DNA of 64,000 bases, from NCBI GenBank assembly GCA_050633245.1, contig JBOEGD010000016.1:26746-90745 (forward strand). Direction: 5' to 3'. This document shows positions 3,148 through 35,991 of this stretch, one piece after another. The position numbers and the translations under genes are program-made. A model generated the notes under the pieces. It was not told the origin of the DNA. It saw only the letters and a list, made by a program, of their open reading frames with translations, and ran no database searches. This DNA comes from Calditrichia bacterium. Lineage in GTDB: Bacteria > Calditrichota > Calditrichia > RBG-13-44-9 > J075. The number at the start of each line of letters is the position of its first letter. Position 1 is the stretch's first letter.

Positions 3148-3240
3148 TGCAGAGTCATCGGTAAAGACACTCAATTGCGCGTCTCTAGAACCTCGGGACA
3201 TACCCAAAGACGCACTGCAGTGGTCTCTATCCATGCGTCT

Positions 3241-4107
3241 CTATAACCGAACAAACGCACCCAGCGTATATGACGGCGAAGACGCTACAAGATTACCGTC
3301 AAACGCCCCAAATGATGCGAAGCTAATCCCAATTTTCGGCGTAATGTCTGCCAGAACTTTCACTCCCGACGCGATCCACTCTTGTCCATCAGCATATAAC
3401 CCGGTCTGAGACAGGTTATTATCTATGTTGACAGCATCGGTAATAGATTGGCGAATGTCGACAGCTGCGATCAGCCAGAAGCGAGAGCCAATTTTCGCGC
3501 CAGCCTCTCCTGCAAACAGAAAGTCATCGCTGTAATCATTCGTTCGGAAACGTAGACTGATATCGCTGGAAACATAATATTTGTTACCGCTTGTTCCCAG
3601 GCTGATTCCTGGAACAATTCCCAATGCATCTACCCCACTCGCCAAACCAGTTGCAACGTCGGCTTCGCCTGCAGGCATCTCTGCTTTAAATGTGATAGCA
3701 GCCTGAAGGCGATTAAAAGCCTTCCCAGACTTTAGTGCAATAGCCGCATTCCCAAGTGCAGACTTACTGCCAGATTCAAGTAGTGGCGAAAAACTTCCTG
3801 CTCTACTATCCTCGGAAGTAGAAACGGATTTAAAGGGAACTTCAATTGAGGCAGACAAGAAAGGTGTTAGTCCGTATTCCGCATAAAACTGAGTTGTGAT
3901 GTCAGAAACATCACGATTCAGTGTAAAGTTATCGCCATCGCCATTATATAGGCCATCATAAGTTGGTATGACGGTAAGCGACAGCTGAGCAAACCCCTTA
4001 CTTTTTTGCTGTAGCCACGGACCACCTGCGAATGCAAATGATCCAAATAGAACTAGCAGGAACAAACTGGTTGCGATCGTATTTCGAGTTGTATTAAACA
4101 GATTCAT
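3241..4107 (-). CDS. Secreted/outer-membrane beta-barrel-like hypothetical protein
   Basis: Signal peptide ending AFA, alternating beta-strand pattern, and AGGAGA RBS. Confidence 0.6.
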   Translation of the reverse strand: MNLFNTTRNTIATSLFLLVLFGSFAFAGGPWLQQKSKGFAQLSLTVIPTYDGLYNGDGDNFTLNRDVSDITTQFYAEYGLTPFLSASIEVPFKSVSTSEDSRAGSFSPLLESGSKSALGNAAIALKSGKAFNRLQAAITFKAEMPAGEADVATGLASGVDALGIVPGISLGTSGNKYYVSSDISLRFRTNDYSDDFLFAGEAGAKIGSRFWLIAAVDIRQSITDAVNIDNNLSQTGLYADGQEWIASGVKVLADITPKIGISFASFGAFDGNLVASSPSYTLGAFVRL

Positions 4108-4639
4108 CAGATGCTTCTCCTAAAGTGTTTACGGAATCTACGAATCTGATATAACAAAACTTTCACGAGCAGATCATATTAGTTCAACGTTCAGACATAT
4201 CAGTGAGTAGCTACTTACCTAAAAAGTTTAGGCCATTTTTATTGACCGAATTAGCTTAGCCGCCTTGTCTTCGTAAGCGTGATTTCGTTTTAACAAACGA
4301 AAAACCAGTCGTATTCGTCATTTACTACTACTTATTTAGTATTCTCTTGGAAAGCTCAAAAAAGATCAATAGAATAAAATAGTAACCAAACGCACCAAAG
4401 CAATTACATCGGCTAATATGGCTTGAAAAGGCCGTGTGCTCGGACAAATCATCATACCTCCGACATAGGGCTATTTCGACCAATTCAATAGATATTTCCT
4501 CCAGGTAATGCGCTAGAGTTGGACTGAAGTTGAAGGTGTTTGTAGCTATCTGAATGAAGCACTTGCATTCCTTTTCTGTTCTACCAACTATCGATCCCGG
4601 CTCATCGTATTATAAACCTTATTGTGATGAGATTTATTT

Positions 4640-4903
4640 ATGCCGATTAAAAGCTATCTCGCCCATCCTGTCCCGCATCAAAAAAAAGAGCTTCAGCAAG
4701 TTCTTTCTGCAATGCCGGAATGTGACTGTTTACATTCCGAAACGCATGACGTTTTGGTGCTGGTTACCAGCACAGAAACAAAGGATGCAGAACTTATTCT
4801 GGAGCAGAGGCTAAAAGAGATTGACGCTCTTCAATGCCTCGTTTTAGTTGCGGGGTACGAAGATCCCCCTCAAAAAATGGTGGTAACAAATGATGAATCG
4901 TAG
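4640..4903 (+). CDS. napD: NapD-like Tat proofreading chaperone
   Basis: 87 aa, 'MPIKSYLAHP...VLVLVTSTE' NapD-like pattern; its end overlaps the napA start. Confidence 0.6.
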   Translation: MPIKSYLAHPVPHQKKELQQVLSAMPECDCLHSETHDVLVLVTSTETKDAELILEQRLKEIDALQCLVLVAGYEDPPQKMVVTNDES

Positions 4904-7211
4904 AGAGTTTCTCAAGGAACTCGCTGCCGCATCGGCAATGTCTGCAGCAGCGATGTTTTTCCCGGGAATTGTCTTCGCGGAAATGCAAAACAAAAATTTC
5001 CCCGGAGAAGATATTGCATGGAAAAAAGCTCCCTGCCGCTTCTGTGGTGTTGGTTGTGGCTTGTTAATAGGTGTATCGGATGGACGCGCTGTTGCTGTAA
5101 AGGGAGATCCGGCAAGTCCGGTAAATAAAGGGCTGTGTTGTGTGAAAGGCTACCACTCGGTTCTTGCACTATACGGTAAGGATCGTTTAAAAACCGCATT
5201 GATTCGCAAAAACGGCAAACTTGTTCCGGCACCTATTAAAGAGGCTCTTGATTTAGTAGCCAGCAAGATGCAAAGCACGATTAAGGAACACGGGAAAGAT
5301 TCTGTGTCGATCTATGGCTCCGGACAGTGGACGATTCCGGATGGCTATGTTGCCTCAAAATTTATGAAAGGGGCAATTGGAACCAACAATCTTGAGGCCA
5401 ATGCCCGGCTCTGCATGGCTAGTGCAGTTACCGGTTTTATAACCAGCTTTGGAATGGATGAACCGATGGGTTGCTACGAAGACATCGACCATGCTGATGT
5501 CTTTGTTCTGTGGGGCAATAATATGGCAGAGATGCACCCGGTGCTTTTTTCGCGGCTGCTGGATCGGCGCATTAAAAATAGTAATGTAAAAATAATAGAT
5601 TTGGCAACTCGTACAACTCGTACCAGCATCGCTTCCGACAAATCTATTTTGTTCATGCCGCAAACAGATTTAGCAATAGCAAATGCAATCTGCTATGAGT
5701 TACTAACAACCGGTAAGATTAACAGAGATTTTTTAAAGAAGCACTGTGAATTTAAAACCGGTAAAACAAACATTGGATTTGGGCTCGAAGAGAAGTTCGC
5801 GTTTAAGGATGAAGCCTCGGCCAGCTCGATGGAAGAGTTCGCAAGTCTTCTTAGCGATTATTCTCCGGAAAAGGTAGAAAGCACATCCGGTGTTTCTGCA
5901 GCCGATATTCGCTACCTTGCATCTCTATATGGTGATCCGAATAAAAAAATTATGAGCCTGTGGTGCATGGGCGCCAACCAGCATACGCGCGGAACCTGGA
6001 TAAATAACCTAATTTATAACATCCATCTTCTAACCGGCAAAATCTCTACTCCCGGTAACAGTCCATTCTCTCTAACCGGACAACCAAGCGCCTGCGGTAC
6101 GGTAAGGGAAGTCGGCACGCTGACTCATAAATTGCCATATGGCGTGGTCATGAAAGAGGCAGCTCGTAAAAAGGCAGCAGATATCTGGCAGGTGCCGGTA
6201 GAAAATATCCCGGCCAAACCAACACATCATACAGTGTCTATGTTCCGGGCACTGGATCGTGGAGATATTCGTTTCATGTGGATTCAAGTGACCAATCCGA
6301 TGGTGACAATGCCGAAACTAAATCGCTATCGGGACGGGACTCTTAAGAAAGGTCGCTTTATTGTTGTTTCAGACGTATATCCCACACCAACCACAGATAT
6401 TGCAGATGTGGTACTACCGTCCGCGATGTGGATTGAACGGGAAGGTATGTACGGAAATTCGGAGCGCCGCACCCAACATTTTGATCAGCTTATTTCCCCT
6501 CCCGGAGAAGCAATGAGCGATACATGGCAGATTATAGAAGTTGCTCGCAGAATGGGTTATCAAAAGCTCTTCCCCTGGAGCGAGCAAGAACATATTGAAA
6601 AAATCTGGGAGGAATACAGTCGGTTTCACGCCGGTGCAAAACACGGGCTGGCACCTTATAAAGTATTGAAAGAACTTCCCGGTGCACAGTGGCCATATGT
6701 CAACGGGAAAAGCACCAAATGGCGTTTTAATGTCGAGCTTGATCCGGCAGCCAAGGGGCAAGGATTCGATTTTTATGGTAAGTCAAATGGCAAAGCCTGG
6801 ATTTGGTTTCGCCCTTACGAAGCACCACCTGAAGTTCCCGACAACGAGTATCCCTTTTGGTTAAACACCGGTAGGGTTCTGGAACATTGGCACACCGGCT
6901 CCATGACCAGACGTGTAGCGATCCTACACCGTGCAGTCCCGAAAGCCTATGTGGAGTTAAACCCTGATGACGCTCGACATCTGGGAATTCGCAACGGTGA
7001 TCCTGTAAAACTGATCTCCCGTCGCGGACAAATAGTTCTACCCGCCTCAATTAATCAACGTGGAAAGCCGGTAGCGGGTCAGGTGTTTGTACCTTTTTTC
7101 GATGAAGCGAAACTGATTAATGAATTGACGCTGGATGCTTATTGCCCAATCTCTAAACAACCGGACTATAAAAAATGCGCGGTAAAAGTGGAAAAAGTAA
7201 CCGGGGTTTAA
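4890..7211 (+). CDS. napA: Periplasmic nitrate reductase catalytic subunit (Mo-bisPGD)
   Basis: Tat signal NRREFLK; 4Fe-4S motif CRFCGVGC...C; NARLCMASA Mo-ligand Cys; GQPSACGT; TGRVLEHWHTGSMT; C-terminal DYKKCAVKV. Confidence 0.93.
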   Translation: MMNRREFLKELAAASAMSAAAMFFPGIVFAEMQNKNFPGEDIAWKKAPCRFCGVGCGLLIGVSDGRAVAVKGDPASPVNKGLCCVKGYHSVLALYGKDRLKTALIRKNGKLVPAPIKEALDLVASKMQSTIKEHGKDSVSIYGSGQWTIPDGYVASKFMKGAIGTNNLEANARLCMASAVTGFITSFGMDEPMGCYEDIDHADVFVLWGNNMAEMHPVLFSRLLDRRIKNSNVKIIDLATRTTRTSIASDKSILFMPQTDLAIANAICYELLTTGKINRDFLKKHCEFKTGKTNIGFGLEEKFAFKDEASASSMEEFASLLSDYSPEKVESTSGVSAADIRYLASLYGDPNKKIMSLWCMGANQHTRGTWINNLIYNIHLLTGKISTPGNSPFSLTGQPSACGTVREVGTLTHKLPYGVVMKEAARKKAADIWQVPVENIPAKPTHHTVSMFRALDRGDIRFMWIQVTNPMVTMPKLNRYRDGTLKKGRFIVVSDVYPTPTTDIADVVLPSAMWIEREGMYGNSERRTQHFDQLISPPGEAMSDTWQIIEVARRMGYQKLFPWSEQEHIEKIWEEYSRFHAGAKHGLAPYKVLKELPGAQWPYVNGKSTKWRFNVELDPAAKGQGFDFYGKSNGKAWIWFRPYEAPPEVPDNEYPFWLNTGRVLEHWHTGSMTRRVAILHRAVPKAYVELNPDDARHLGIRNGDPVKLISRRGQIVLPASINQRGKPVAGQVFVPFFDEAKLINELTLDAYCPISKQPDYKKCAVKVEKVTGV

Positions 7212-7894
7212 CGGACGACTTAAACTCAAAATACCGATTCATATTTATTGGCCTATGTATACTCCTGATGGCATCATCCGTTTTGATTATTGGTAAGAGC
7301 CTACGTGAAAACGCACGAGAACCGGATATCTCTTTGCAATCGAAGGGTGATCGCTCGGCAATTGCAATTGAGGCAGACGTGTTTCGAAGTGCCGGTAAAA
7401 TGTCGGAGAACTTTTTTTCTCAGGCTGCGAAAGGCTCCTCTCGAAAACTGGTTGATTTTTATTCTCTTAGGGCGTATCCGGGTGCTCCTCCCTCTATTCC
7501 ACATCCGGTAGCGAAGAACAATACCATTGGACACAACGTTTGCCTGCAATGCCACGAAAACGGAGGATATGTACCCAAATTTGAAGCATTTGCACCTGTG
7601 ACACCCCACCCGGAATTTGTTAACTGTTTACAATGTCATTCCGTTAACACGACCAACAGCACGTTTGTAAATTCTGATTGGAGAGTTCCCGCTCCGCCCC
7701 GAATAAATCAGGAGGCACTCTCCGGAAGTCCTCCACCCATTCCACACGCGCTCCATCTAAGAGGTAATTGCCTCGCGTGTCATTCGGGTCCGGGCGCCGT
7801 TGAGGAACTAAGATTTACCCATGCAGAGCGTACCAATTGTCTACAATGCCATGCCTTGAGTTCTGGCATATCGCCCTGGCAACGTGAACAATAA
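7175..7894 (+). CDS. Membrane-anchored NapB-like multiheme cytochrome c (4 CxxCH)
   Basis: N-terminal TM helix; two 'PP.IPH' NapB-like motifs; CLQCH, CLQCH, CLACH, CLQCH. Confidence 0.8.
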   Translation: MRGKSGKSNRGLTDDLNSKYRFIFIGLCILLMASSVLIIGKSLRENAREPDISLQSKGDRSAIAIEADVFRSAGKMSENFFSQAAKGSSRKLVDFYSLRAYPGAPPSIPHPVAKNNTIGHNVCLQCHENGGYVPKFEAFAPVTPHPEFVNCLQCHSVNTTNSTFVNSDWRVPAPPRINQEALSGSPPPIPHALHLRGNCLACHSGPGAVEELRFTHAERTNCLQCHALSSGISPWQREQ

Positions 7895-7952: not shown

Positions 7953-8597
7953 ATGAAAATTTTGCCTAAAATTCCATCGGTGAATTACTTATTTCTTACC
8001 ATTGGTTTCGGTTTTCTCCTAATGGCCTGCAGTTCTGACCATGAAGATAAGACACATCACCAGAGCTTCGCCGAACAGTTATCGGAGAAACATGATCGGA
8101 CCTTAAAGGTGGACATAAATCGTGTAACAGATTTCGATCTTGAAAATTTTATTCCGGTAGACGTTTTATCAACCAACCCCAAATTCTACGTCTCCCCACA
8201 GCTTGCTACAATTTCATCATTTCCCTGCAATGAATGTCATGATCGTCCTTTGAGACAGCTTACTAAGCTTGTCGATCCGGAGATTCAAAAGGCCCATTGG
8301 CAGATTCAGCTAAAGCACGCTTCTACAGATGCGATGGACTGTCAAACTTGTCACAACTCGGAGGACATGAATACATTGGTTAGCTTAACCGGCAAGAAGA
8401 TATCCCTTAACCACAGTTATCAACAGTGCGCTCAGTGTCATTCCGGTCAAGCGACAGACTGGATTGGTGGTGCACATGGCAAACGTGTTGAAGGATGGAT
8501 TCCTCCTCGAATTATCAAAAACTGTGTCCAGTGTCATGATCCACACCAACCGGGTTGGGAAAAAAGATGGCCGACTCAAACACAACAAGTGAGATAA
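7953..8597 (+). CDS. Tetraheme cytochrome c lipoprotein
   Basis: Lipobox LMAC; CNECH, CQTCH, CAQCH, CVQCH. Start moved to ATG 7953. Confidence 0.8.
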   Translation: MKILPKIPSVNYLFLTIGFGFLLMACSSDHEDKTHHQSFAEQLSEKHDRTLKVDINRVTDFDLENFIPVDVLSTNPKFYVSPQLATISSFPCNECHDRPLRQLTKLVDPEIQKAHWQIQLKHASTDAMDCQTCHNSEDMNTLVSLTGKKISLNHSYQQCAQCHSGQATDWIGGAHGKRVEGWIPPRIIKNCVQCHDPHQPGWEKRWPTQTQQVR

Positions 8598-8604
8598 CGA
8601 TACA

Positions 8605-9825
8605 ATGAAAACTCTTCCACAGCAAAACCAGTGTTCTCAAGGATGTTGCTCTAATAAGACAGACGCCAATTCTCCCCCCCAAAGTTTCGCAAGTGGCATC
8701 GCGAATAAGACACTTGCCGGGCTTAAAAAGAACACTCAGGAACTGCTTGCCGAAAGCCAGTTGAAACTAACGCCGACGCCCCGATTTGAATCCTCCGTAA
8801 ATTCAGCGTCTGGTTTAAATGACGTTTTGCTATGGCATCTGATGAAGGATGATGTTTCAAACTCAAAAGCTCAGGCAAAATCAAAGCACATTCAAATGGA
8901 GCAAGCCATTCAACGCCCAATGTCACGTCGTTCAGCAGTGAAAGGTCTGGCCGCAGGCTTAATGGCCGGTCTCGGACTTGTGCAAAGTAGCTGTAGTCCG
9001 TTTGAGGGAGATTCCGGCAAAGCGAGCAAACTAAAATGGAATGAATACTTCAAAGGGAATTTCCGCTTAATGACCGCGACGGAAAAACGGGAAACAATAG
9101 ACCGCCTTCAGCAACTGTATGCACTAAACACCGGGGAACACATTCAGATTAGCGCCGCAAGTGCGCCGAAGAATGTGCTATTTGGCTATGCGTTTAATAT
9201 TGGTAAGTGCCAGGGTTACATGGATTGTATAAAGGCATGTATCAATGAGAATAATCAGGATCGCAAATCCGATATGCGCTACATTCGTATTCATGAGCAC
9301 AAAAAAGGGCATTTTAACTTTGAACATGCCAAAGACGATTTTTTTCATGAGGTTCCCCTGGAAGGGCACTTCTATATAGGAACTCAATGTTTTCACTGTG
9401 AGAATCCGCCATGTGTTGATGTCTGCCCTGTCCAGGCTACCTGGAAGGAGGAAGACGGGATTGTGGTTGTCGATTACGACTGGTGCATCGGCTGTCGATA
9501 TTGTCAAGCTGCCTGCCCTTATGATGCTCGTCGGTTCAATTGGAATGATCCCACTGTTCCGGAAGAGGAAGTGAATCGCAAGCAACATTACCTCGGGAAC
9601 AGGCTCCGGAAGAAAGGCGTCATGGAAAAGTGCACTTTCTGCATTCAGCGCACGCGCGCAGGCAAAAACCCGGCCTGTGTTGAAGCATGCCCAACCGGAG
9701 CGCGTGTGTTTGGCAACTTACTAGATCCCGACAGCGAAATCCGATGGATTATTGAGAACAAAAAAGTGTTTCGTTTAAAAGAGGAATTAGGGACTGAGCC
9801 TAAATTTTGGTATTACATGGACTAA
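8605..9825 (+). CDS. NrfC/DsrO-like 4Fe-4S ferredoxin subunit
   Basis: CFHCENPPCVDVCP, CIGCRYCQAACP, KCTFC...PACVEACP; internal Tat-like SRRSAVK. Confidence 0.85.
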   Translation: MKTLPQQNQCSQGCCSNKTDANSPPQSFASGIANKTLAGLKKNTQELLAESQLKLTPTPRFESSVNSASGLNDVLLWHLMKDDVSNSKAQAKSKHIQMEQAIQRPMSRRSAVKGLAAGLMAGLGLVQSSCSPFEGDSGKASKLKWNEYFKGNFRLMTATEKRETIDRLQQLYALNTGEHIQISAASAPKNVLFGYAFNIGKCQGYMDCIKACINENNQDRKSDMRYIRIHEHKKGHFNFEHAKDDFFHEVPLEGHFYIGTQCFHCENPPCVDVCPVQATWKEEDGIVVVDYDWCIGCRYCQAACPYDARRFNWNDPTVPEEEVNRKQHYLGNRLRKKGVMEKCTFCIQRTRAGKNPACVEACPTGARVFGNLLDPDSEIRWIIENKKVFRLKEELGTEPKFWYYMD

Positions 9826-27840: not shown

Positions 27841-28209
27841 TTATCTGTTTCCGGTTTGCCAATCATATAGTTTACCATCACGGATGTCAGCACGAAAATA
27901 CGCTGCCACATGCCAGCGATGGTCGGGATTATGATACCAGTCCAAATGATCAGCGCTTACACCAGTTGGAGGGCCCAGCACCGCTTCAGCGTCTGCGCGG
28001 GACATTCCGTCATGCAGCGTTCCATTGTCGATCAAAGCCTTGCGTTCAAGAAAACTGCTCGGCGTGCCGTACGGCCAGCCTTCGGTCACTAGCACTTTTT
28101 CTGACGTGTCTGTTGCTGCTTTTGCAGACTTGGCCTGCTGTTTGTCAGTATGATTACAGCCTGTAATTATGATTGACAGGACAATCGATAGTACCATTGC
28201 TCTAATCAC
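27841..28209 (-). CDS. Small lipoprotein (SmpA/BamE-like 'GMS..DAEAVLGPP' motif)
   Basis: Lipobox IITGC. GTG 28209 lies just after the CHAT gene stop, with GAGGA upstream (ATG 28227 or 28197 are alternatives). Confidence 0.65.
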   Translation of the reverse strand: MIRAMVLSIVLSIIITGCNHTDKQQAKSAKAATDTSEKVLVTEGWPYGTPSSFLERKALIDNGTLHDGMSRADAEAVLGPPTGVSADHLDWYHNPDHRWHVAAYFRADIRDGKLYDWQTGNR

Positions 28210-28210
28210 T

Positions 28211-29305
28211 CTACAATTCCTCGTCATTTTTTTGCCCCAGAAACACAGGTGTATCCGCACCGTCAAGATTACGCATATCAAGCGCATTGCAACCGATTTC
28301 ATATGCTATTTTATAAGACTTTCCGGCACCCAGAGTATCATAAAACGCAACCGAAAATTCTATCGCTGCCTGCTGCTCAATTTTGTTGCTCATACCAATA
28401 ACGCAGGGAATGTGTGCGCTAATTGCCCTGGCCTGTGGTTCAGAATAACAAGCATTGAGTATGACGCACTCAATATTCTCGCTCAGTATACCCAACAAAT
28501 TTGCCAATGCAGCCTCACCTATCGGCTTTCCGAGTCCATTTTCATCCTCTAGTAGAACGGCGCTCTTATTCTCAGAACGCATACCGTGTCCGCTAAAATG
28601 CACGATATTCGGCTCCTCATCTAAAATAGCACGGCGTAAGTCTGTAGTGCGAACCGCCATTCGCGTTACCAGCTCAAACTCATCGCGACGATTTGCACGG
28701 CGAAGGCCCTCCTCTATCTCGCGGATTTCCTCGGCGATGCGCAGCGGATCCTGATCAATCGGCTGGGCAGCCAGCACCAGAATTTTACGCTTTTTCTTAT
28801 TTGCGGTATGATTCTTATTGGATCGTTTATCGATGGTCACTTGCGCAGCATCACCGGTAATATTGATTTGATCACCTTCTACCTGCGTTGTGCTTTGATC
28901 GACAGTATAGTCACCCGTTACCTTCCCTGGCGAGTTTTGACCATGCGTTGTAATGGTATCACCATAACTGACGTTCTGTACATTGCCATCGCCCTGCTGG
29001 TTGGGGCTATTGGTAAACTGGTTACCGCTTTGGGAATAGTGCTTTTTAGGTTGAATCTCTTTCATTAGCTGTTGCAGCACCGTATTGCTCTCTACATAGG
29101 CTTCAAAATACTTGGCGCTTTTGCGATCTGTCTCACTGGCCTTCATTGCCTCTTCGACAATAGCCGTTAGCTGCTCCTCGCTGATCAGAAACTTCTGTAG
29201 TCGTTCGCGCAGGAATTGTTTGGTTACACTTCCGGCGGCCTTTACAGCGTCATAACAAATTCCGCCTAGCACAGCGGAGGTGAGAAATGCGTTTACTCCG
29301 TCCAT
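28211..29305 (-). CDS. Putative effector: N-terminal helical domain, Q/N/G/T-rich linker and CHAT (caspase/HetF-like) protease
   Basis: 'KILVLAAQP...LRI.EE.REI', catalytic His in IVHFSGHG (aa 240), Cys in VILNACYS (aa 286), 'VIGM', 'FY..L..G'. Confidence 0.9.
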   Translation of the reverse strand: MDGVNAFLTSAVLGGICYDAVKAAGSVTKQFLRERLQKFLISEEQLTAIVEEAMKASETDRKSAKYFEAYVESNTVLQQLMKEIQPKKHYSQSGNQFTNSPNQQGDGNVQNVSYGDTITTHGQNSPGKVTGDYTVDQSTTQVEGDQINITGDAAQVTIDKRSNKNHTANKKKRKILVLAAQPIDQDPLRIAEEIREIEEGLRRANRRDEFELVTRMAVRTTDLRRAILDEEPNIVHFSGHGMRSENKSAVLLEDENGLGKPIGEAALANLLGILSENIECVILNACYSEPQARAISAHIPCVIGMSNKIEQQAAIEFSVAFYDTLGAGKSYKIAYEIGCNALDMRNLDGADTPVFLGQKNDEEL

Positions 29306-29331
29306 TGATATTCCTTTTTATTGGGATACAC

Positions 29332-31509
29332 CTACATTTTCTTGCTAATTCGATCTATAAAATCCTGAATTTTCTGATGATAAGGATGCTCTTCCGGCAA
29401 GGCGGCATGGTAAATTTCTGCTGCCCGAGAGCAGTAATTCAGGGCAGCTTCGAAATGCCTCATATCCTCTAAGATAGACCCCATTACCCAGCAGGACAGT
29501 GCTAAATCAGGATGATTCGCATGCAAAACCGGCTCACGAATTTTTAATGCCTTCTGTTGCGCATCCAACGCATCTTCTAAACGACCCAAAGAACGATAAA
29601 CCGTCGACAGATTGCTGTAAGATGTGGCTAAGTCAGGATGCCTCTCATCCAAAATAGCTCCAAAAATCTCATGCGCCTTTAGCTGCACTTCCAACCCATC
29701 TTCTAAACGATCCAAAGACTGATAAATAGACGAAAGGTTGTTGTAGGACTGTGCTAAAGAAGGATGAGTCGCATCTAAAACGGACTCACGGATGTTCACT
29801 GCCTTCTGTTGCGCTTCCAACCCATCTTCTAAACGACCCAAAGAAAGATAAACCGTCGACAGATTGTTGTAGGAGGTAGCTAAAGAAGGGTGAGTTGCAT
29901 CTAAAACGGACATTTTAATCTTTAATGCCTTCTGCTGTGACTCCAGCGCATCCTCAAAACGCCCCAAAGAATTATAAATCAACGACAGATTGTTGTAGGA
30001 CTGTGCTATGTCTGGATGATCCACACCCAAAACGGACTCACGACAATTCAAAGCCTTCTGCTGCGACTCTAGCGCATCCTCAAAACGCCCCAAAGAATTA
30101 TAAATCAACGACAGATTGTTGTAGGAGTTGGCCAGTGAAAGATCATCAGCCTCTAGCAGCTTTTCTTCAATGTCTATTCCGCGCAGCTGCACCTCAAGAG
30201 AGTCAGTTATTCGTCCAAAATGGTAATAAATCCAAGCCAGGCGTTCCATAAATCTCGCCAACGAGGTATTAGCGTCCGTCAAATAAGACACCATATCCTC
30301 TGCATAAGGAACAAGACTTGCCTTTGCAAGCGGATTGTCTCCAGGCTGGACGGTTAGTAAGTTTGTCAGCGATTCGATCAGCTTGCTACACCCCCCCGCA
30401 GTGGGTTTCAACCGCTCCCGTGCCACCGCAGCAATAATTGGGTGCAAAAAGACTTCAAAACCTTCCTGCTCAGACAGCCAGCCTTTGGCGACTAGTGAAG
30501 TAAGGGTATCGCTAATGTCATCCTGTAGCCAGTCGCTGAGCATTTGTGCTTCCATTGGCTCAGAAGGCAATACGCATAGGTTAGCAAGTACGTGGGCTTC
30601 TTCTGCAGATAGACCTTCCATGTTAAAAACGTTATTCAGGTGCTCAAAAAGCTTCTTCTCATCAATTTGATCATGCCAGAGGGTCTTAACCTTTTTCGGC
30701 AGAGCTTCATTTAGGTTAAAGCCGATCTCCTTCAGACGTTCCAGCAGTACGGTAATACTTATTTTGGCATGGTTGGCCGTCTTGGCAAGCAGCTCGACAG
30801 TCAACGTATGCTGCCCGGCAAGGTCGATTATCTCCTCCAGCGTTTCCACATCGCGCTTGCCCTTATAGAAGCGATAGAAAATCTCTCTGCAGCTTTCCAC
30901 ATCCAGAAATCCCAGTGGATAGCTCTCAAAACCTGCCAGCTGCAGCCGCGAGCTGGTTACCACCTTTAGCGGCAGGCCGCGCAGGTTGGCCAGATCAGCG
31001 TCTTCTGCATCAAGAATGTCATCGACAACCAGCAAAGACTTTACGGGCAGATTTGCAATCAAATGCATAATAAGCGCAAACTGTTCGTCGAGCGTTTGGC
31101 CCTGCTGAGGCGTAAATACCTCTGCGCTAATCGCCCGAACCAAAGACTCACGAAAGCTGCCAAAATAGTCTACCCACAGCAAATGATCAAAATTCGTCTT
31201 CTGTTCATGGAAAAAATGACGGCACAGCTCAGTCTTGCCTATGCCACCCAGGCCATTCACTACCACCACTGCTCCGGCATCATTCAGCGAGGTTTCCAGC
31301 TGGCGCAAATCTTCTTTCCGACCAACAAAACCCGCATTCTGCGGAGGTGTTCCGGTGAGGAATTTCGGTAATAGTTTATCACCGGAAATATACTGGTTTA
31401 TGATGTTTCCATAGTGAACGCGCTGAGTTCCACCATCGCCCTGCATATTGGGGCTTTGGATAAAGGCATTGTCAGCCTGCTCTTGCTCTTTTGGTTTCTT
31501 CTTTGGCAT
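29332..31509 (-). CDS. NB-ARC (STAND) ATPase + TPR, NLR-like receptor (here NLR-C)
   Basis: FVGRKEDL, Walker A GLGGIGKT, Walker B LLVVDD, 42-aa TPRs of the HPxxAxSYNNLS type. Confidence 0.92.
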   Translation of the reverse strand: MPKKKPKEQEQADNAFIQSPNMQGDGGTQRVHYGNIINQYISGDKLLPKFLTGTPPQNAGFVGRKEDLRQLETSLNDAGAVVVVNGLGGIGKTELCRHFFHEQKTNFDHLLWVDYFGSFRESLVRAISAEVFTPQQGQTLDEQFALIMHLIANLPVKSLLVVDDILDAEDADLANLRGLPLKVVTSSRLQLAGFESYPLGFLDVESCREIFYRFYKGKRDVETLEEIIDLAGQHTLTVELLAKTANHAKISITVLLERLKEIGFNLNEALPKKVKTLWHDQIDEKKLFEHLNNVFNMEGLSAEEAHVLANLCVLPSEPMEAQMLSDWLQDDISDTLTSLVAKGWLSEQEGFEVFLHPIIAAVARERLKPTAGGCSKLIESLTNLLTVQPGDNPLAKASLVPYAEDMVSYLTDANTSLARFMERLAWIYYHFGRITDSLEVQLRGIDIEEKLLEADDLSLANSYNNLSLIYNSLGRFEDALESQQKALNCRESVLGVDHPDIAQSYNNLSLIYNSLGRFEDALESQQKALKIKMSVLDATHPSLATSYNNLSTVYLSLGRLEDGLEAQQKAVNIRESVLDATHPSLAQSYNNLSSIYQSLDRLEDGLEVQLKAHEIFGAILDERHPDLATSYSNLSTVYRSLGRLEDALDAQQKALKIREPVLHANHPDLALSCWVMGSILEDMRHFEAALNYCSRAAEIYHAALPEEHPYHQKIQDFIDRISKKM
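29927..30126. repeat. Near-identical TPR-coding direct repeat with 126-bp period in NLR-C
   Basis: SYNNLSLIYNSLGRFEDALESQQKAL is encoded twice, 126 nt apart, with only a couple of synonymous differences. Confidence 0.85.
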
Positions 31510-31524
31510 CGTATAAACCTATTT

Positions 31525-33594
31525 TTATTCTTTCGTCTCGTCCAGTTTCTCCCTGTAGGATTGTAAATTATGAAATGCGATATCAAGATGAGGATGCCCA
31601 CCCGTAAAATTTTTTTGCCAAATCTGCAAGGCCCTTTCTTCAAACACCACTGCAAAATTATAGCTTTCCATGACCGCGTAAATACTCGCAAGGTTGTGAT
31701 AAGACTGCGCTAAGTCCGGGTGATCACCAGACAAAGTTGAGCCACGTATTTCAACCGATTTCTGCTGCATTTCCAAAGCCTCAGCGAAACAATATAACCC
31801 CTTATAAATAAGCGACAGGTTATTGTAGGACGTCGCTAGATTAGGATGATCCACACCCATAACCGAGATATAAATTTTATGTGCTTTCTTCTGCGTAGCC
31901 AACGCCTCGTCCAAACGTCCCATTGATTCAAAAATAAGTGACAAATTGTTGTAAGAGGTTGCTAAATTAGGGTGATCAGAGGGCAACGCCGACTCGAATA
32001 TGTCAATTGCTTTCTGCTGGGAAGCCAGTGCATTATCTAAACGACTCAAAGAACGATAAATTAGCGACAAATTATTGTAGGAGCTTCCTAAGTCAAGGTG
32101 ATCGGGTGGTAATAGTAACTCACTAATTTTAAGATCTTTCAGCTGCGACGCAAGCGCATCATCCAAACGCCCTAAAGAAAGATAAATTTGCGACAGGTCG
32201 TTATAGGAATCAGCCAATAAGGCATCGGTGCTATGAAGGAGCTGCTCTCGAATAGCAACGGAGCGTAGCTGCACCCTGAGGGATTCATTTAACTTTCCAA
32301 TTCCACGATATACCCAGCCCAAATAATACCCCAATGTCGCCAAGATTAGATGATCTTCGTTAAGATGGTTAAACAGTTCCTGACTGTAGGGAAGAAAAAT
32401 TGATTTACTAATTGGATTATCCCCCGGCTTCATTTCAAGTTTACTGATAAGCGAGTTGACCAAGATATTACAAGACATTGCCTTTGGCTTCAGCCGTTCC
32501 CGAGCCACGGCAGCAATAATTGGGTGCAAAAACACTTCAAAACCTTCCTGCTCAGACAGCCAGCCTTTGGCGACTAGTGAAGTGAGGGTATCGCTAATGT
32601 CATCCTGTAGCCAGTCGCTTAGTATTGCGGCTTCCATAGGCTCAGACGGCAATACACATAGATTAGCCAGCACGTAGGCTTCCTCTTCTGACAGGCTGTC
32701 CATTGCAAAAACGTTGTTTAAATGCTCAAAAAGCTTCTTTTCATCGACCTGCTCATGCCAGAGCATCTTCACGTTCTTTGGCAAGGCCTCATTCAGATTA
32801 AAGCCGATATCTATCAGGCGTTCAAACAGAACGGCAATGCTGATTTTTGCATGGTTGGCCGTCTTGGCAAGCAGCTCGACGGTCAGAGTATGCTGCCCGG
32901 TAAGATCGATCACGGCATCCAGCGTTTCCTCATCGCGCTTGCCGTTGTAAAAGCGATAGAAAACTTCCCGGCAGCTTTCAACGTCCAGAAATCCCAACGG
33001 ATAGCTTTCAAAACCTTCCAGCTGTAGACGTGAGCTGGTAACCACCTTTAGCGGCAGGCCGCGCAGTGCGGCCAGATCAGCGTCTTCTGCATCAAGAATG
33101 TCATCAACCAGCAGTAATGACTTTTCCGGCAAGTCGGCAAGAATAAGCATCACCTGCTCAAACTGTTCATTTAATGTTTGCCCCTCTCGCGGTCTGAATA
33201 CGTCTGTTCTAATAGCACGTACTAATGATTCCCGAAAGTTGCCGAGATAATCTACCCAGAGCAGGTGCTCAAACTTCGCCTGCTGTTCATGAAAAAAATG
33301 CCGGCACAGCTCGGTTTTGCCAATTCCACCCAGGCCATTCACCACCACCACTGCTCCGGCATCATTCAGCGAGGTTTCCAGCTGACGCAGATCTTCCTCC
33401 CGACCAAAGAAACCTGCATTCTGCGGTGGCGTGCCGGTGAGGAATTTGGGCAGCGGTTTTTCACCGGAAATATATTGATTTATGATATTTCCATAGTGAA
33501 CGTGCTGCGTATTGCCATCGCCCTGCTGATTCGGGCTTTGGCTAAAGGCATTAGCGCTCTGCTCTTGCTTTTTTGGCTTCTTTTTTGACGACAT
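31525..33594 (-). CDS. NB-ARC (STAND) ATPase + TPR, NLR-like receptor (here NLR-B)
   Basis: FFGREEDL, GLGGIGKT, LLLVDD, 42-aa TPRs; paralogue of both neighbours. Confidence 0.92.
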   Translation of the reverse strand: MSSKKKPKKQEQSANAFSQSPNQQGDGNTQHVHYGNIINQYISGEKPLPKFLTGTPPQNAGFFGREEDLRQLETSLNDAGAVVVVNGLGGIGKTELCRHFFHEQQAKFEHLLWVDYLGNFRESLVRAIRTDVFRPREGQTLNEQFEQVMLILADLPEKSLLLVDDILDAEDADLAALRGLPLKVVTSSRLQLEGFESYPLGFLDVESCREVFYRFYNGKRDEETLDAVIDLTGQHTLTVELLAKTANHAKISIAVLFERLIDIGFNLNEALPKNVKMLWHEQVDEKKLFEHLNNVFAMDSLSEEEAYVLANLCVLPSEPMEAAILSDWLQDDISDTLTSLVAKGWLSEQEGFEVFLHPIIAAVARERLKPKAMSCNILVNSLISKLEMKPGDNPISKSIFLPYSQELFNHLNEDHLILATLGYYLGWVYRGIGKLNESLRVQLRSVAIREQLLHSTDALLADSYNDLSQIYLSLGRLDDALASQLKDLKISELLLPPDHLDLGSSYNNLSLIYRSLSRLDNALASQQKAIDIFESALPSDHPNLATSYNNLSLIFESMGRLDEALATQKKAHKIYISVMGVDHPNLATSYNNLSLIYKGLYCFAEALEMQQKSVEIRGSTLSGDHPDLAQSYHNLASIYAVMESYNFAVVFEERALQIWQKNFTGGHPHLDIAFHNLQSYREKLDETKE

Positions 33595-33615
33595 AGTATG
33601 GACCTAGTTTTGTTG

Positions 33616-35559
33616 CTATTTCGTCTCATCCAGTTTCTCTTGATAGGATTGCAAAGCACTGGATGAACTGTCAACGTGAGGGTGCCCATCAGGAAAGTTC
33701 ACCTCAAGTATTTGCAGGGCCTTCGCTTCGAGTTCTAGTGCCTTCTGGTAATTTTTCTGCACTGCATAAATGCCGGCTAGGTTGTGATAGGAAATCGCTA
33801 AATGAGGATGAGCCGTATCCAAAACAATTTCAGCAATTTTGTGCGCTTTCTCTTGCGTAGCCGACGCCTCGTCCAAACGCCCCAAAGAACGATAAATCAG
33901 TGACAGATTGTTGTAGGACCCCGCTACATGGGGATGAGTCGAATCCAAAGCCGACTTAAGTATTTTGTGCGCTTTCTCTTGCGCAGCCAATGCCTCATCC
34001 AAACGACTCAAAGAACGATAAATCAGTGACAGATTGTTGTAGGACGTCGCTAATAAAGGATGATTTGCTTCCAACACTGACTCGCTGATTTCAATATCCT
34101 TCTGCTGCGCAGCCAATGCCTCATCCAAACGCCCCAAAGACTGAAAGGTTAGTGCCAAATTGGAATAGGATGAAGCCAGAGAATTATCATTATTTTCTAA
34201 CAGCCGCTCTTCGATCTCAAGCCCACGGTGTTGAACTTTTAGAGAGTCTTCTAACCTTCCAAGATCGCGGTAAACCCAAGCCAGGTGAAACATCAATTTT
34301 GCCACCAGCGTACTATCTTCATTCAATTGATCGACCAGTTTTTGCGCAAAGGGCACATAGCCGGCACGACGAAGTGGATTATCTTCCGGCTCAACAGTCA
34401 GCTTTATTGTAAGCGATTCGATCAGCTTCCTACAGGTGTCGGGAGTGGGCTCTAACAGTTCGCGAGCCACTGCGGCAATAATCGGGTGCAAAAACACTTC
34501 AAAACCTTCCTGCTCAGACAGCCAGCCTTTAGCTGTGAGGGCAGTCAGCGTATCGCTGAGATCCTTTTTCAGCCAGTCGCTTAAGGTCTGGGCTTCCAAT
34601 GGTTCAGACGGCAGCACACAGAAATTAGACAAAACCTCGACCTCGTCGTCAGTAAGGTCCTCCATTGCAAAGACGTTTCTTAAGTGCTCAAAGAGCTTCT
34701 TTTCATCAATCTCGTCATGCCAGAGCGTCTTTACGTTCTTCGGTAGAGCCTCATTCAGGTTAAAGCCGATCTCCTTCAAGCGTTCAACCAGATCCGCAAT
34801 GCTGATTTTGGCATGATTGGCTGTCTTGGCCAAAAGCTCGACGGTAAGCGTATGCTGCCCGGCAAGGTCGATAATCTCCTCCAGCGTTTGCTCATCGCGC
34901 CTGCCCTTGTAAAAGCGATAGAAAATCTCTTTGCAGCTTTCCATATCCAGAAATCCCAGCGGATAGCTTTCAAAGCCTTCCAGCTGTAAGCGCGAGCTGC
35001 TAACCACCTTTAGCGGCAGGCTGCGCAAGGCCGCTAAATCGGGATCATTAACATCATCAATATCATCAACAACCAGCAGGGTCTTCCTCGGCAAATTGGT
35101 AGCCAGCCCCATAACCAGCGCAAACTGCTCATCCAGAGTCTGCCCTTCGGTTGGCATAAATACTTCGGATCGCATTACCCGCACCAAAGACTCGCGGAAG
35201 CTACCGAGATAATCCACCCACAGCAGGTGCGTAAACTGCTCTTTCTGCCGGTGAAAAAACTGCCGGCACAGCTCGGTTTTGCCAATCCCGCCCAGACCGT
35301 TCACCACAACCACCGCCCCGGCACTGTTCAGCGTATTTTCCAACTGCGCGAGGTCTTCCTCCCGGCCAAAAAAGCCGGCATTTTGCGGTGGCGTACCGGT
35401 AAGAAATTTGGGCAGCGGCTTTTGCTGCGGAAGATTGTTAATCGTGCGCTTATCAATATTTACGGATGCCTGTTCACCGCTAATATTTAGCTGGTCATTG
35501 GCAATTTTAGTTTTTGAGTGGCTGACAGAAGTCTGTTGAGGCTTTTTCTTTTTTGCCAA
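33616..35559 (-). CDS. NB-ARC (STAND) ATPase + TPR, NLR-like receptor (here NLR-A)
   Basis: TTG start with GGGAG RBS; FFGREEDL, GLGGIGKT, LLVVDD, 42-aa TPRs. Confidence 0.92.
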   Translation of the reverse strand: MAKKKKPQQTSVSHSKTKIANDQLNISGEQASVNIDKRTINNLPQQKPLPKFLTGTPPQNAGFFGREEDLAQLENTLNSAGAVVVVNGLGGIGKTELCRQFFHRQKEQFTHLLWVDYLGSFRESLVRVMRSEVFMPTEGQTLDEQFALVMGLATNLPRKTLLVVDDIDDVNDPDLAALRSLPLKVVSSSRLQLEGFESYPLGFLDMESCKEIFYRFYKGRRDEQTLEEIIDLAGQHTLTVELLAKTANHAKISIADLVERLKEIGFNLNEALPKNVKTLWHDEIDEKKLFEHLRNVFAMEDLTDDEVEVLSNFCVLPSEPLEAQTLSDWLKKDLSDTLTALTAKGWLSEQEGFEVFLHPIIAAVARELLEPTPDTCRKLIESLTIKLTVEPEDNPLRRAGYVPFAQKLVDQLNEDSTLVAKLMFHLAWVYRDLGRLEDSLKVQHRGLEIEERLLENNDNSLASSYSNLALTFQSLGRLDEALAAQQKDIEISESVLEANHPLLATSYNNLSLIYRSLSRLDEALAAQEKAHKILKSALDSTHPHVAGSYNNLSLIYRSLGRLDEASATQEKAHKIAEIVLDTAHPHLAISYHNLAGIYAVQKNYQKALELEAKALQILEVNFPDGHPHVDSSSSALQSYQEKLDETK

Positions 35560-35821
35560 GGCTGGTTGCTCCCTATTGCTTTATGCAACGTTTATCCAGC
35601 TCGCCTGTCCTGGAATCAGCAGTAACACGTTGCTGACACAAAATTCAGGTAGGTCTATGATTGTCACTACTTTAATAGGTGCAGATATAGGGGAGATTTC
35701 GCAAAAAGATATAATTTTTTTGCTAAAATTTCAAGGCTTGAAAAAACCAGTCGCATCCTTTTTAGCAGTTCGCATGAGAATATAGATATTTATTGCTGAG
35801 GAAAATATCTGCAGGATCTCC

Positions 35822-35926: not shown

Positions 35927-35960
35927 AAAAAAGGAGGCTCCGCAAATTGCAGAGCCTCCT
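35927..35960 (-). terminator. Intrinsic terminator of the fad operon
   Basis: AGGAGGCTC..GCAA/TTGC..GAGCCTCCT stem with an A-tract on the left (U-tail on the minus strand). Confidence 0.8.
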
Positions 35961-35991
35961 CGAGTAAAGATCTAATCATGATTTTAGAAGA

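Follow-up and report, generated by a model that had tools for sequence, protein, structure and literature searches.

Gene Content of the Locus

The stretch of DNA analysed here (the window) comprises 64,000 nucleotides of contig JBOEGD010000016.1 from a Calditrichia bacterium (assembly GCA_050633245.1), and contains a cassette of four co-oriented minus-strand genes within 7.3 kb (28211-35559). Three of the genes encode paralogous NOD-like receptors (NLRs) and the fourth encodes a predicted double effector, the linker of which contains short peptides shared with the receptors. The original prediction of four tightly spaced genes, separated by 21, 15 and 26 nt, agrees with the open reading frame (ORF) layout. 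The genome carrying the window (G000) was 6.35 Mb in size and 97% complete, and contained 11,212 ORFs of at least 80 amino acids (aa). The nucleotide-binding oligomerisation domain (NOD) of each receptor is followed by tetratricopeptide repeats (TPR), and the genes are as follows:

33616..35559, minus strand: NLR1 (P0001), 647 aa, TTG start; K-rich start, motif B peptide, NB-ARC NOD and five TPR_10 stretches (Pfam)
31525..33594, minus strand: NLR2 (P0002), 689 aa; K-rich start, motif A peptide, NB-ARC NOD and TPR array
29332..31509, minus strand: NLR3 (P0003), 725 aa; K-rich start, motif A peptide, NB-ARC NOD and the longest TPR array
28211..29305, minus strand: effector (P0004), 364 aa; Babybell/HetE-N domain, three-unit linker and CHAT protease

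The sequence GGGAG is present ~10 nt upstream of the TTG start of NLR1.

The Three Receptors

All three NLRs scored above the Pfam NB-ARC cut-off of 23.5 bits (24.4, 30.9 and 31.3 bits) and also matched AAA_16, and their TPR_10/TPR_12 arrays were detected with E values of 1e-37 to 1e-69. The Walker A (GLGGIGKT) and Walker B (LL[VL]VDD) sequences were intact in NLR1, NLR2 and NLR3. Nothing was detected by Pfam before residue ~60 in any of the three, in agreement with their earlier description as NB-ARC and TPR paralogues without an N-terminal effector domain. The identity between NLR1 and NLR2/3 was 14-18% over the first ~45 residues, 77-84% over the adjoining NOD and winged helix (NOD+WH), and 47-61% over the TPR arrays. 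The distinction first drawn between two kinds of receptor peptide is borne out by these values. As the N-termini and the TPR arrays are diverged while the NOD is conserved, the paralogues differ in motif and sensor and keep the same switch.

The TPR arrays are built of 126-nt tandem units that are 75-84% alike at the DNA level (window positions 29493-30127 and 33796-34140). Internally conserved repeats in NLR sensors are thought to permit fast reshuffling of specificity. Only three copies of the NOD were found in a search of the G000 ORFs. The wider NOD clade included 77 matches at E ≤ 1e-20, the closest named member being from 'candidate division KSB1' (46% identity). Most members carry an N-terminal fusion to TIR or Bell-like helices, which corresponds to the 'all-in-one versus split' pattern described for amyloid-signalling NLRs, and two members (P0204 and P0226) begin with motif-A-like peptides.

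The Effector

The effector consists of two folded domains on either side of the linker:

29042..29299, minus strand: Babybell/HetE-N helical domain, aa 3-88 (Pfam PF20701; fold and sequence match to PDB 9h9v)
28232..28795, minus strand: CHAT caspase-like protease domain, aa 171-358 (His240 codon 28586-28588; Cys286 codon 28448-28450)

The N-terminal region matched HetE-N (PF20701, cut-off 25 bits) with 55.9 bits (E 5.6e-15, aa 7-105). An AlphaFold2 (AF2) model of aa 1-170, built with 44 homologues, showed five helices within aa 3-83 and a disordered tail, with a predicted local distance difference test (pLDDT) of 88-96 per 10-residue block over aa 11-90. In a Foldseek search with this domain model, the six best PDB matches were all chains of 9h9v (TMt 0.80-0.84; root-mean-square deviation (rmsd) 1.7-2.2 Å), and phmmer comparison of the effector with 9h9v gave an E value of 6e-6. 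Under the title 'BabyBass soluble domain', this entry reports a crystal structure of Bab, the effector of the E. coli Bab/Agp system, and covers its execution domain. According to the available text of the Bab/Agp report, the mutation of Bab G11, Y14 and D15 abolishes Bab activity (10.1101/2024.11.07.622273). The residues G15, Y18 and D19 of effector helix 1 are in register with these three, and the equivalent of Bab D2 is Ala. In the 44-sequence alignment, D19 was at least 90% conserved and K22 was invariant. The effector scored 65.3 bits (E 5e-18) against NCBIfam GapS6a, below the cut-off of 90, and is a relative of GapS6a but not a member by the NCBI rule. Judged by its sequence matches and its modelled fold, the N-terminal 'helical domain', which was not recognised in the original prediction, is a Babybell/HetE-N execution domain of the pore-forming type. 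The effector would thus hold two potential killing modules in a single chain, rather than a protease and a spacer.

The C-terminal region matched CHAT (PF12770, cut-off 24 bits) over aa 172-330 with 46.5 bits (E 4e-12), and in the full-length AF2 model the CHAT domain had a pLDDT of 84-96 per 10-residue block over aa 171-340. The protease dyad was intact, as had been claimed, with His240 in SGHG and Cys286 in NACYS, both at least 90% conserved in 29 aligned sequences. The best Foldseek match was 8tl0 (E 5e-14, rmsd 2.6 over 192 columns), ahead of caspases, MALT1, separase and Csx29; phmmer comparison with 8tl0 gave an E value of 1.4e-12, with the His/Cys dyad aligned. As 8tl0 is an 'activated SAVED-CHAT filament', the closest solved CHAT structure provides a precedent for polymer-dependent activation.

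Peptides Shared between the Receptors and the Effector Linker

The N-terminus of each NLR was compared with the effector linker by local alignment, with significance taken from 2000 shuffles. The genomes G009, G006 and G007, which are referred to below, are from sister genera; G009 belongs to the same taxonomic family as G000, as does a further genome, G001. The matched peptides and the three units of the linker are as follows:

35434..35529, minus strand: NLR1 N-terminal peptide, aa 11-42 (motif B side); matches effector aa 134-165
33472..33579, minus strand: NLR2 N-terminal peptide, aa 6-41 (motif A and the first half of motif C); matches effector aa 85-121
31390..31491, minus strand: NLR3 N-terminal peptide, aa 7-40 (motif A); matches effector aa 88-121
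28967..29029, minus strand: linker motif A, aa 93-113; cognate of NLR2 and NLR3
28895..28966, minus strand: linker motif C, aa 114-137; no full cognate receptor in G000; homologous to the peptide common to the NLRs and the CHAT effector in G009, and to NLR peptides of G006 and G007
28820..28894, minus strand: linker motif B, aa 138-162; cognate of NLR1, followed by a K/R-rich stretch

The peptides of NLR1, NLR2 and NLR3 matched the linker with scores of 79, 106 and 86 (z 11.4, 14.2 and 10.8, respectively), each with 0 of 2000 shuffles reaching the score, and with E values of 4e-4, 1.3e-7 and 7e-5 among the whole ORF set. These three NLRs were the only matches to the linker at E < 0.01 in G000, and six-frame tblastn agreed. 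The nucleotide identity of the matched peptides was 67% (NLR2) and 59% (NLR3) for motif A and 60% (NLR1) for motif B, and 4 of the 11 identical residues in motif B were encoded by the same codon. The retention of the protein match despite the diverged DNA argues for selection and against recent gene conversion. The original prediction that the linker holds copies of both receptor peptides therefore stands (z 10.8-14.2, 0 of 2000 shuffles), although the linker consists of three units and the middle one, motif C, had been missed.

Motif C takes the form GD-x-I-T-T-x-G-x-x-SPGKV-x-GDY. No other copy was found in the six frames of the 97%-complete G000 genome, and NLR2 and NLR3 keep only its first half. 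This unit may represent an orphan or ancestral 'socket'; alternatively, it may contribute to the fold of the units on either side. Motifs A, C and B abut in one continuous region of ~75 aa, which is composed of 59% Q/N/G/S/T, with 0 Leu and 2 Pro in 76 aa, and aa 86-164 were predicted to be disordered (pLDDT < 50) in the AF2 models. Every motif is bracketed by K-rich stretches, at the NLR starts (35529-35559, 33565-33594 and 31485-31509) and in the effector (aa 86-88 and 161-174), and stand-alone HetE-N homologues also end in a K-rich stretch. These stretches may act as charged gatekeepers against spontaneous aggregation. A complex prediction for aa 1-50 of NLR1 and of NLR2 with effector aa 85-170 gave a score of 0.01 against a mark of 0.34, which was taken as neither for nor against an interaction.

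Homologous Loci and Motif Co-Variation

Contig 61 of G009 contains a CHAT gene (P0009) with 51% identity to the effector CHAT, flanked by two NLR genes with NODs 41% and 38% identical to that of NLR2. The order within the G009 effector is a hydrophobic N-helix, motif C and CHAT, and both of the flanking NLRs also carry motif C. The match to the G009 effector was strong for NLRb (score 131, z 22) and for the NLRa leader (score 279, z 54), with 0 of 2000 shuffles in both cases, and the shared region spans a hydrophobic helix of ~35 aa besides motif C. Across loci, NLR1, NLR2 and NLR3 of G000 did not match the G009 effector (z 0.6, 2.4 and 2.8), and G009 NLRb matched the G000 effector solely through the motif C segment (z 5.9). 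Co-variation of the motifs in homologous loci, set beforehand as a check on the original prediction, was thus found at the one informative locus, and these comparisons suggest that homologous receptors and effectors change the shared peptide together. The NLR homologues of G006 and G007 had no CHAT neighbour within the 9.1 and 18 kb examined, and are not usable for co-variation. A search of genome contigs for loci related to P0004 returned one CHAT-only locus (L009, a Bacillota metagenome-assembled genome), which was uninformative.

In G009 NLRa, G006 and G007, the leader, which consists of a hydrophobic helix and motif C and ends in PPKK, is in the +1 frame relative to the NOD. The junctions are as follows:

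~7370-7700 of G009:C61 (L042), plus strand: G009 NLRa, A_AAA_AAG heptamer
~9400-9760 of G006:C168 (L044), minus strand: G006, A_AAA_AAA heptamer
~8400-8760 of G007:C190 (L043), minus strand: G007, A_AAA_AAA heptamer

In all three genes, a 0-frame stop directly follows the slippery heptamer, and a stem-loop of 11-14 bp is present 5-8 nt downstream (-23.7, -29.6 and -24.1 kcal/mol; z -3.5, -2.7 and -3.7). One base pair of the stem, C:G to U:A, differs in a compensatory manner between G006 and G007. No such stem was found in four in-frame genes (G009 NLRb, NLR1, NLR2 and NLR3; z +0.2 to -1.3). The junctions look like canonical -1 frameshift architecture, which would give a helix and motif peptide of ~86 aa in addition to the full receptor; alternatively, the change of frame may be a homopolymer sequencing error.

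The effector N-domain and linker (aa 1-170) were searched against 1.84 billion representative proteins, and 47 proteins were found at E ≤ 1e-3. Most of these are 105-145 aa in length and comprise HetE-N, a C-terminal N/Q/G-rich motif and a K-rich tail. In several, HetE-N is followed by a motif-A-like unit (F-x-N-S-P-x-x-Q-G-x-G-N), and in the closest relatives of the N-domain, P0126 and L014 (genome G001), it is followed by motif C. A few have extra C-terminal domains of no known family, and one is an all-in-one HetE-N-STAND-TPR protein. CHAT was found in none of the eight longer relatives scanned, and among the 120 CHAT homologues listed of 985 matches in a word-indexed search of at most 8,000 candidates, PF20701 and PF12770 occurred together only in P0004. 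The fusion of Babybell to CHAT is rare, which is a statement of rarity and not of absence.

Metagenome contigs searched with 13 HetE-N proteins yielded 18 loci, of which 17 were analysed together with L014; L018, in which the gene is cut by the contig end, was left out. At ten loci (L019-L025 and L028-L030), the Babybell tail matched the N-terminus of a gene of ~1,100 aa just downstream (scores 53-76), an arrangement of the Bab/Agp type, and the motif there is another one, of the Q-x-H-x-G-x-G-D-N-V kind. As all ten loci share one motif family, the cross-locus controls reached the same scores (maxima 50-76), and these loci show motif sharing rather than co-variation. No partner was found at the other eight loci: L026, L027, L032 and L014 were truncated or lacked a large neighbour, and at L016, L017, L031 and L033 the best scores (16-39) were within the controls. 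At L016 and L017, the protein has a motif-A-like unit and an extra C-terminal domain, with no matching neighbour.

Proposed Mechanism and Alternative Explanations

On the basis of its sequence and of analogy with characterised systems, we consider the locus probably to be a cassette of four, possibly five, genes for cell death or defence, of the type in which NLR and effector share a short motif. Each NB-ARC and TPR protein would sense its own cue through its diverged TPR array and oligomerise through the NOD, and oligomerisation would gather the N-terminal Q/N/G-rich peptides of ~30 aa. The clustered peptides would nucleate a cross-beta (amyloid-like) fold, which would in turn template the matching unit of the linker, motif A for NLR2 and NLR3 and motif B for NLR1. 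On polymerisation of the effector, helix 1 of the Babybell domain, which is hydrophobic, would become free to attack the membrane, in line with the proposal made for Bab, and the CHAT domains would be brought together, switching on the His240/Cys286 protease. The outcome would be abortive infection or regulated cell death, for which any single sensor should suffice. The formation of amyloid, the direction of signalling, the activation of both modules, the independence of the inputs and the role in defence are all proposed by analogy with HET-S/NWD2, Bell/BASS and Bab/Agp, and the likeness to the first two of these drawn in the original prediction was apt. The OR gate and the orthogonal 'sockets' of the original prediction are conjectures; the former is plausible, because the sensors are diverged and NLR2 and NLR3 share one motif.

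A broader reading, which we put forward tentatively and regard as rather doubtful, joins these observations. The effector would be a modular 'signal bus' with two killing modules, the linker of which collects different amyloid sockets for new or diverged NLRs without cross-talk. Motif C would be a spare or ancestral socket still accepting receptors of the sister-genus type, and programmed -1 frameshifting in the sister genera would yield two products from one gene and so set, at the level of translation, the ratio of receptor to polymer subunit.

Several points weigh against the cassette being a defence or cell-death system of this type. Housekeeping genes are present on both sides of it, and it does not lie in an obvious defence island. 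No PADLOC system model fitted the cassette proteins over their full length; the NLRs matched locally at the P-loop only (Avs4, E 0.004-0.017; PDC-S27, E 0.006-0.008), and for the effector, matches were limited to the generic 'chat' model (2e-12) and to the CHAT portion of SAVED_CHAT (2e-6). The PADLOC check for an existing name, proposed together with the original prediction, accordingly returned no named system. The motifs lie inside the effector, between two folded domains, whereas in the described bacterial cases they are at the effector C-terminus, and motifs A, B and C are not assigned to any of BASS1-11. As motif C has no cognate receptor in G000, not every unit of the linker is a used 'socket'. 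The co-variation involves two loci only. Lastly, a simple OR gate would be undermined by co-assembly of the three NODs, for which their similarity is sufficient.

The wiring would be the same if the peptides were non-amyloid homotypic adaptors, acting by beta-strand augmentation or as a small ordered oligomer, in the manner of the helical effector-associated domains (EADs), and recruiting the effector stoichiometrically to the NLR oligomer. This is unlikely, but it has points in its favour: EAD-type coupling of CHAT effectors is widespread, with EAD10- and EAD11-CHAT proteins among the CHAT homologues listed; G000 itself holds an EAD8-CHAT-TIR gene beside an EAD8 protein; and the hydrophobic helix of ~35 aa makes the region shared in G009 more than a minimal amyloid core. 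However, in composition (59% Q/N/G/S/T, no Leu), length and predicted disorder, the linker agrees with what has been described for BASS-type motifs, and the same type of motif follows Babybell domains, at the position of the proven amyloid motif of Bab.

The similarity of the NODs raises a second alternative, namely that the NLRs are not independent but form mixed oligomers (sensor/helper or AND-like), with both motif types needed in one nucleus to convert the composite linker. The identity of 77-84% over NOD+WH is close enough for co-assembly, the genes are translationally tight (gaps of 15-26 nt) and A, C and B abut in a single linker of ~75 aa. Nevertheless, we regard it as improbable, since NLR2 and NLR3 carry the same motif, which would be redundant in an AND design, the G009 locus uses one motif type on two NLRs, and the TPR arrays are diverged (47-61%), as expected of independent sensors.

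It is very improbable that the peptides are substrate or pseudosubstrate sites of CHAT, such that the linker self-inhibits or is cut to free Babybell, and the NLR N-termini are cut or compete, with no templating. The K/R-rich stretches that flank the effector motifs and start each NLR would suit such a role, and in bacterial gasdermin systems caspase-like proteases free pore-formers; however, stand-alone Babybell proteins without a protease have the same motif type and K-rich tails, and Bab/Agp uses such a motif without a protease. Least probable of all, to the point of being negligible, is that the likeness has no role in signalling and is left over from exon-like shuffling, by which the effector gene acquired copies of NLR 5' ends: motif C, without a partner in G000, shows that unmatched units can persist, but the codons have diverged synonymously while the residues are conserved, the matches are exclusively to adjacent genes, and the same logic recurs with another motif in G009 and in loci of the Bab/Agp type.

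Surroundings of the Cassette and Related Observations

The neighbouring genes in the window are housekeeping genes, including fadE-, thiolase- and fadB-like genes, a LysR regulator and a strictosidine-synthase-like gene. In a survey of 86 species genomes of the host phylum, HetE-N was present in 2 and the NOD clade in 5, and the cassette is an accessory element. The homologues of the downstream gene in relatives were only 38-41% identical when the flanks were compared, too distant for the insertion site to be read from synteny. Further features close to the cassette are as follows:

35706..35734, minus strand: sigma-70-like promoter match upstream of NLR1; consensus match only, of a kind not enriched over shuffles
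35931-35961: 14-bp terminator-like hairpin of the upstream fadE-like gene; consensus match only
27841..28197, minus strand: possible fifth gene, a small lipoprotein-like ORF (lipobox ...ITGC); membership in the system uncertain

The lipoprotein-like ORF has an internal ATG 13 nt past the effector stop and comprises a signal and a domain of ~95 aa, in which no Pfam family was detected at E ≤ 0.001. It may be the fifth gene of the operon, or it may be unrelated.

Other CHAT genes were observed elsewhere in G000. On the minus strand of L046 (G000:C2:74000-84000, positions 2103-7024), the EAD8-CHAT-TIR gene lies directly upstream of an EAD8-(unknown)-Lcl_C gene and a TIR-Lcl_C gene, a helical-adaptor variant of effector coupling that involves a paralogous CHAT. 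Within 14 kb on C18 (52618-66362) there are three more CHAT paralogues (518, 169 and 425 aa), which may form a defence island. On C22 (316-1404), the CHAT domain of another protein is followed by an N/G/S-rich stretch, and the N-terminus of a neighbour matches this CHAT protein with a score of 51.

Comparison with Known Systems

Amyloid signalling from NLRs to effectors is established for fungi and, more recently, for E. coli, and the cassette touches on the open questions of specificity between motif families, the activation of enzymes by templating and the expansion of sensor repertoires. It packs two unrelated motif types, three sensors and two killing modules into 7.3 kb, and because of this compactness, orthogonality, OR-gating and protease activation by polymerisation could be tested in one construct. 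It would also extend the NLR amyloid-type mechanism to a poorly studied phylum.

In the fungal NWD2/HET-S system, the N-terminal motif of the NLR templates the amyloid motif of the effector, and in the fungal PNT1/HELLP/SBP cluster one receptor feeds two effectors through one motif. The cassette differs from the latter in that three receptors would converge on one double effector, with two or more motif types in use. SAVED-CHAT (8tl0) is the closest solved CHAT by both sequence and fold and is active as a filament; however, its polymerisation is driven by the cyclic-nucleotide-binding SAVED domain, and it involves no NLR, shared peptide or Babybell domain. Most reports of BASS-type systems concern Actinobacteria and Cyanobacteria, whereas the host of this cassette is neither an actinobacterium nor a cyanobacterium.

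The architecture was not recognised as a named system in the original prediction, but the class had already been published, as BASS with CHAT and as Bab/Agp. In the available text of Dyrka 2020 (10.1101/2020.01.06.895854), BASS motifs are described as common to NLRs and Bell proteins, and less often to CHAT or TIR proteins, with double and triple motifs being pseudo-repeats of a single motif facing one NLR. The Bell/BASS pairs described there resemble the cassette in having an effector-less NB-ARC/TPR NLR with a Q/N/G-rich N-terminal motif of ~25-35 aa, an adjacent and probably co-transcribed gene for a Bell-type helical domain followed by the same motif, CHAT listed as an alternative effector, double or triple motif copies, and a motif rich in Q/N/G/V/I and poor in P/L, which the present linker fits. 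As far as that text goes, they differ in that the effector motif is C-terminal, whereas here it occupies aa 93-162 of 364 and is followed by a CHAT domain of 190 aa, and in that here unlike motif types are matched to different paralogous receptors, with three receptors per effector.

In the E. coli Bab/Agp abortive infection system, as given in the available text (10.1101/2024.11.07.622273), a shared amyloid motif carries the signal from sensor to effector and Babybell kills. The cassette has in common with it the Babybell fold, the G/Y/D residues of helix 1, K-rich flanks and the presence of a short motif shared by the effector and the adjacent sensor, whereas Bab is only 109 aa long, lacks an enzyme domain and carries a single BASS11 motif at its C-terminus. 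GAPS6a/b of the GMT islands, from the part of the report available (10.1101/2023.03.28.534373), is of the same type as Bab/Agp. The EAD systems of STAND NTPases and CHAT effectors (Kaur et al. 2021, PMC8195603) likewise have an adaptor common to the NTPase and a separate effector, and HetE-N is named there as an effector domain; in the available text, however, EADs are folded, alpha-helical and ~90-100 aa in length, in contrast with the short disordered Q/N/G-rich peptide here.

In the passages of literature covered, including those of Dyrka 2020 and of the review PMC7889193, we found no case in which one effector carries different motif types, in which several NLRs feed a single effector or in which a motif array lies internally between Babybell and CHAT, although the supplementary motif-pair tables may hold such cases. 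Relative to this literature and to the homologues examined, the internal array of different motifs, the fusion of Babybell to CHAT and the convergence of three receptors on one effector are new features of the cassette, built on a principle that is itself published.

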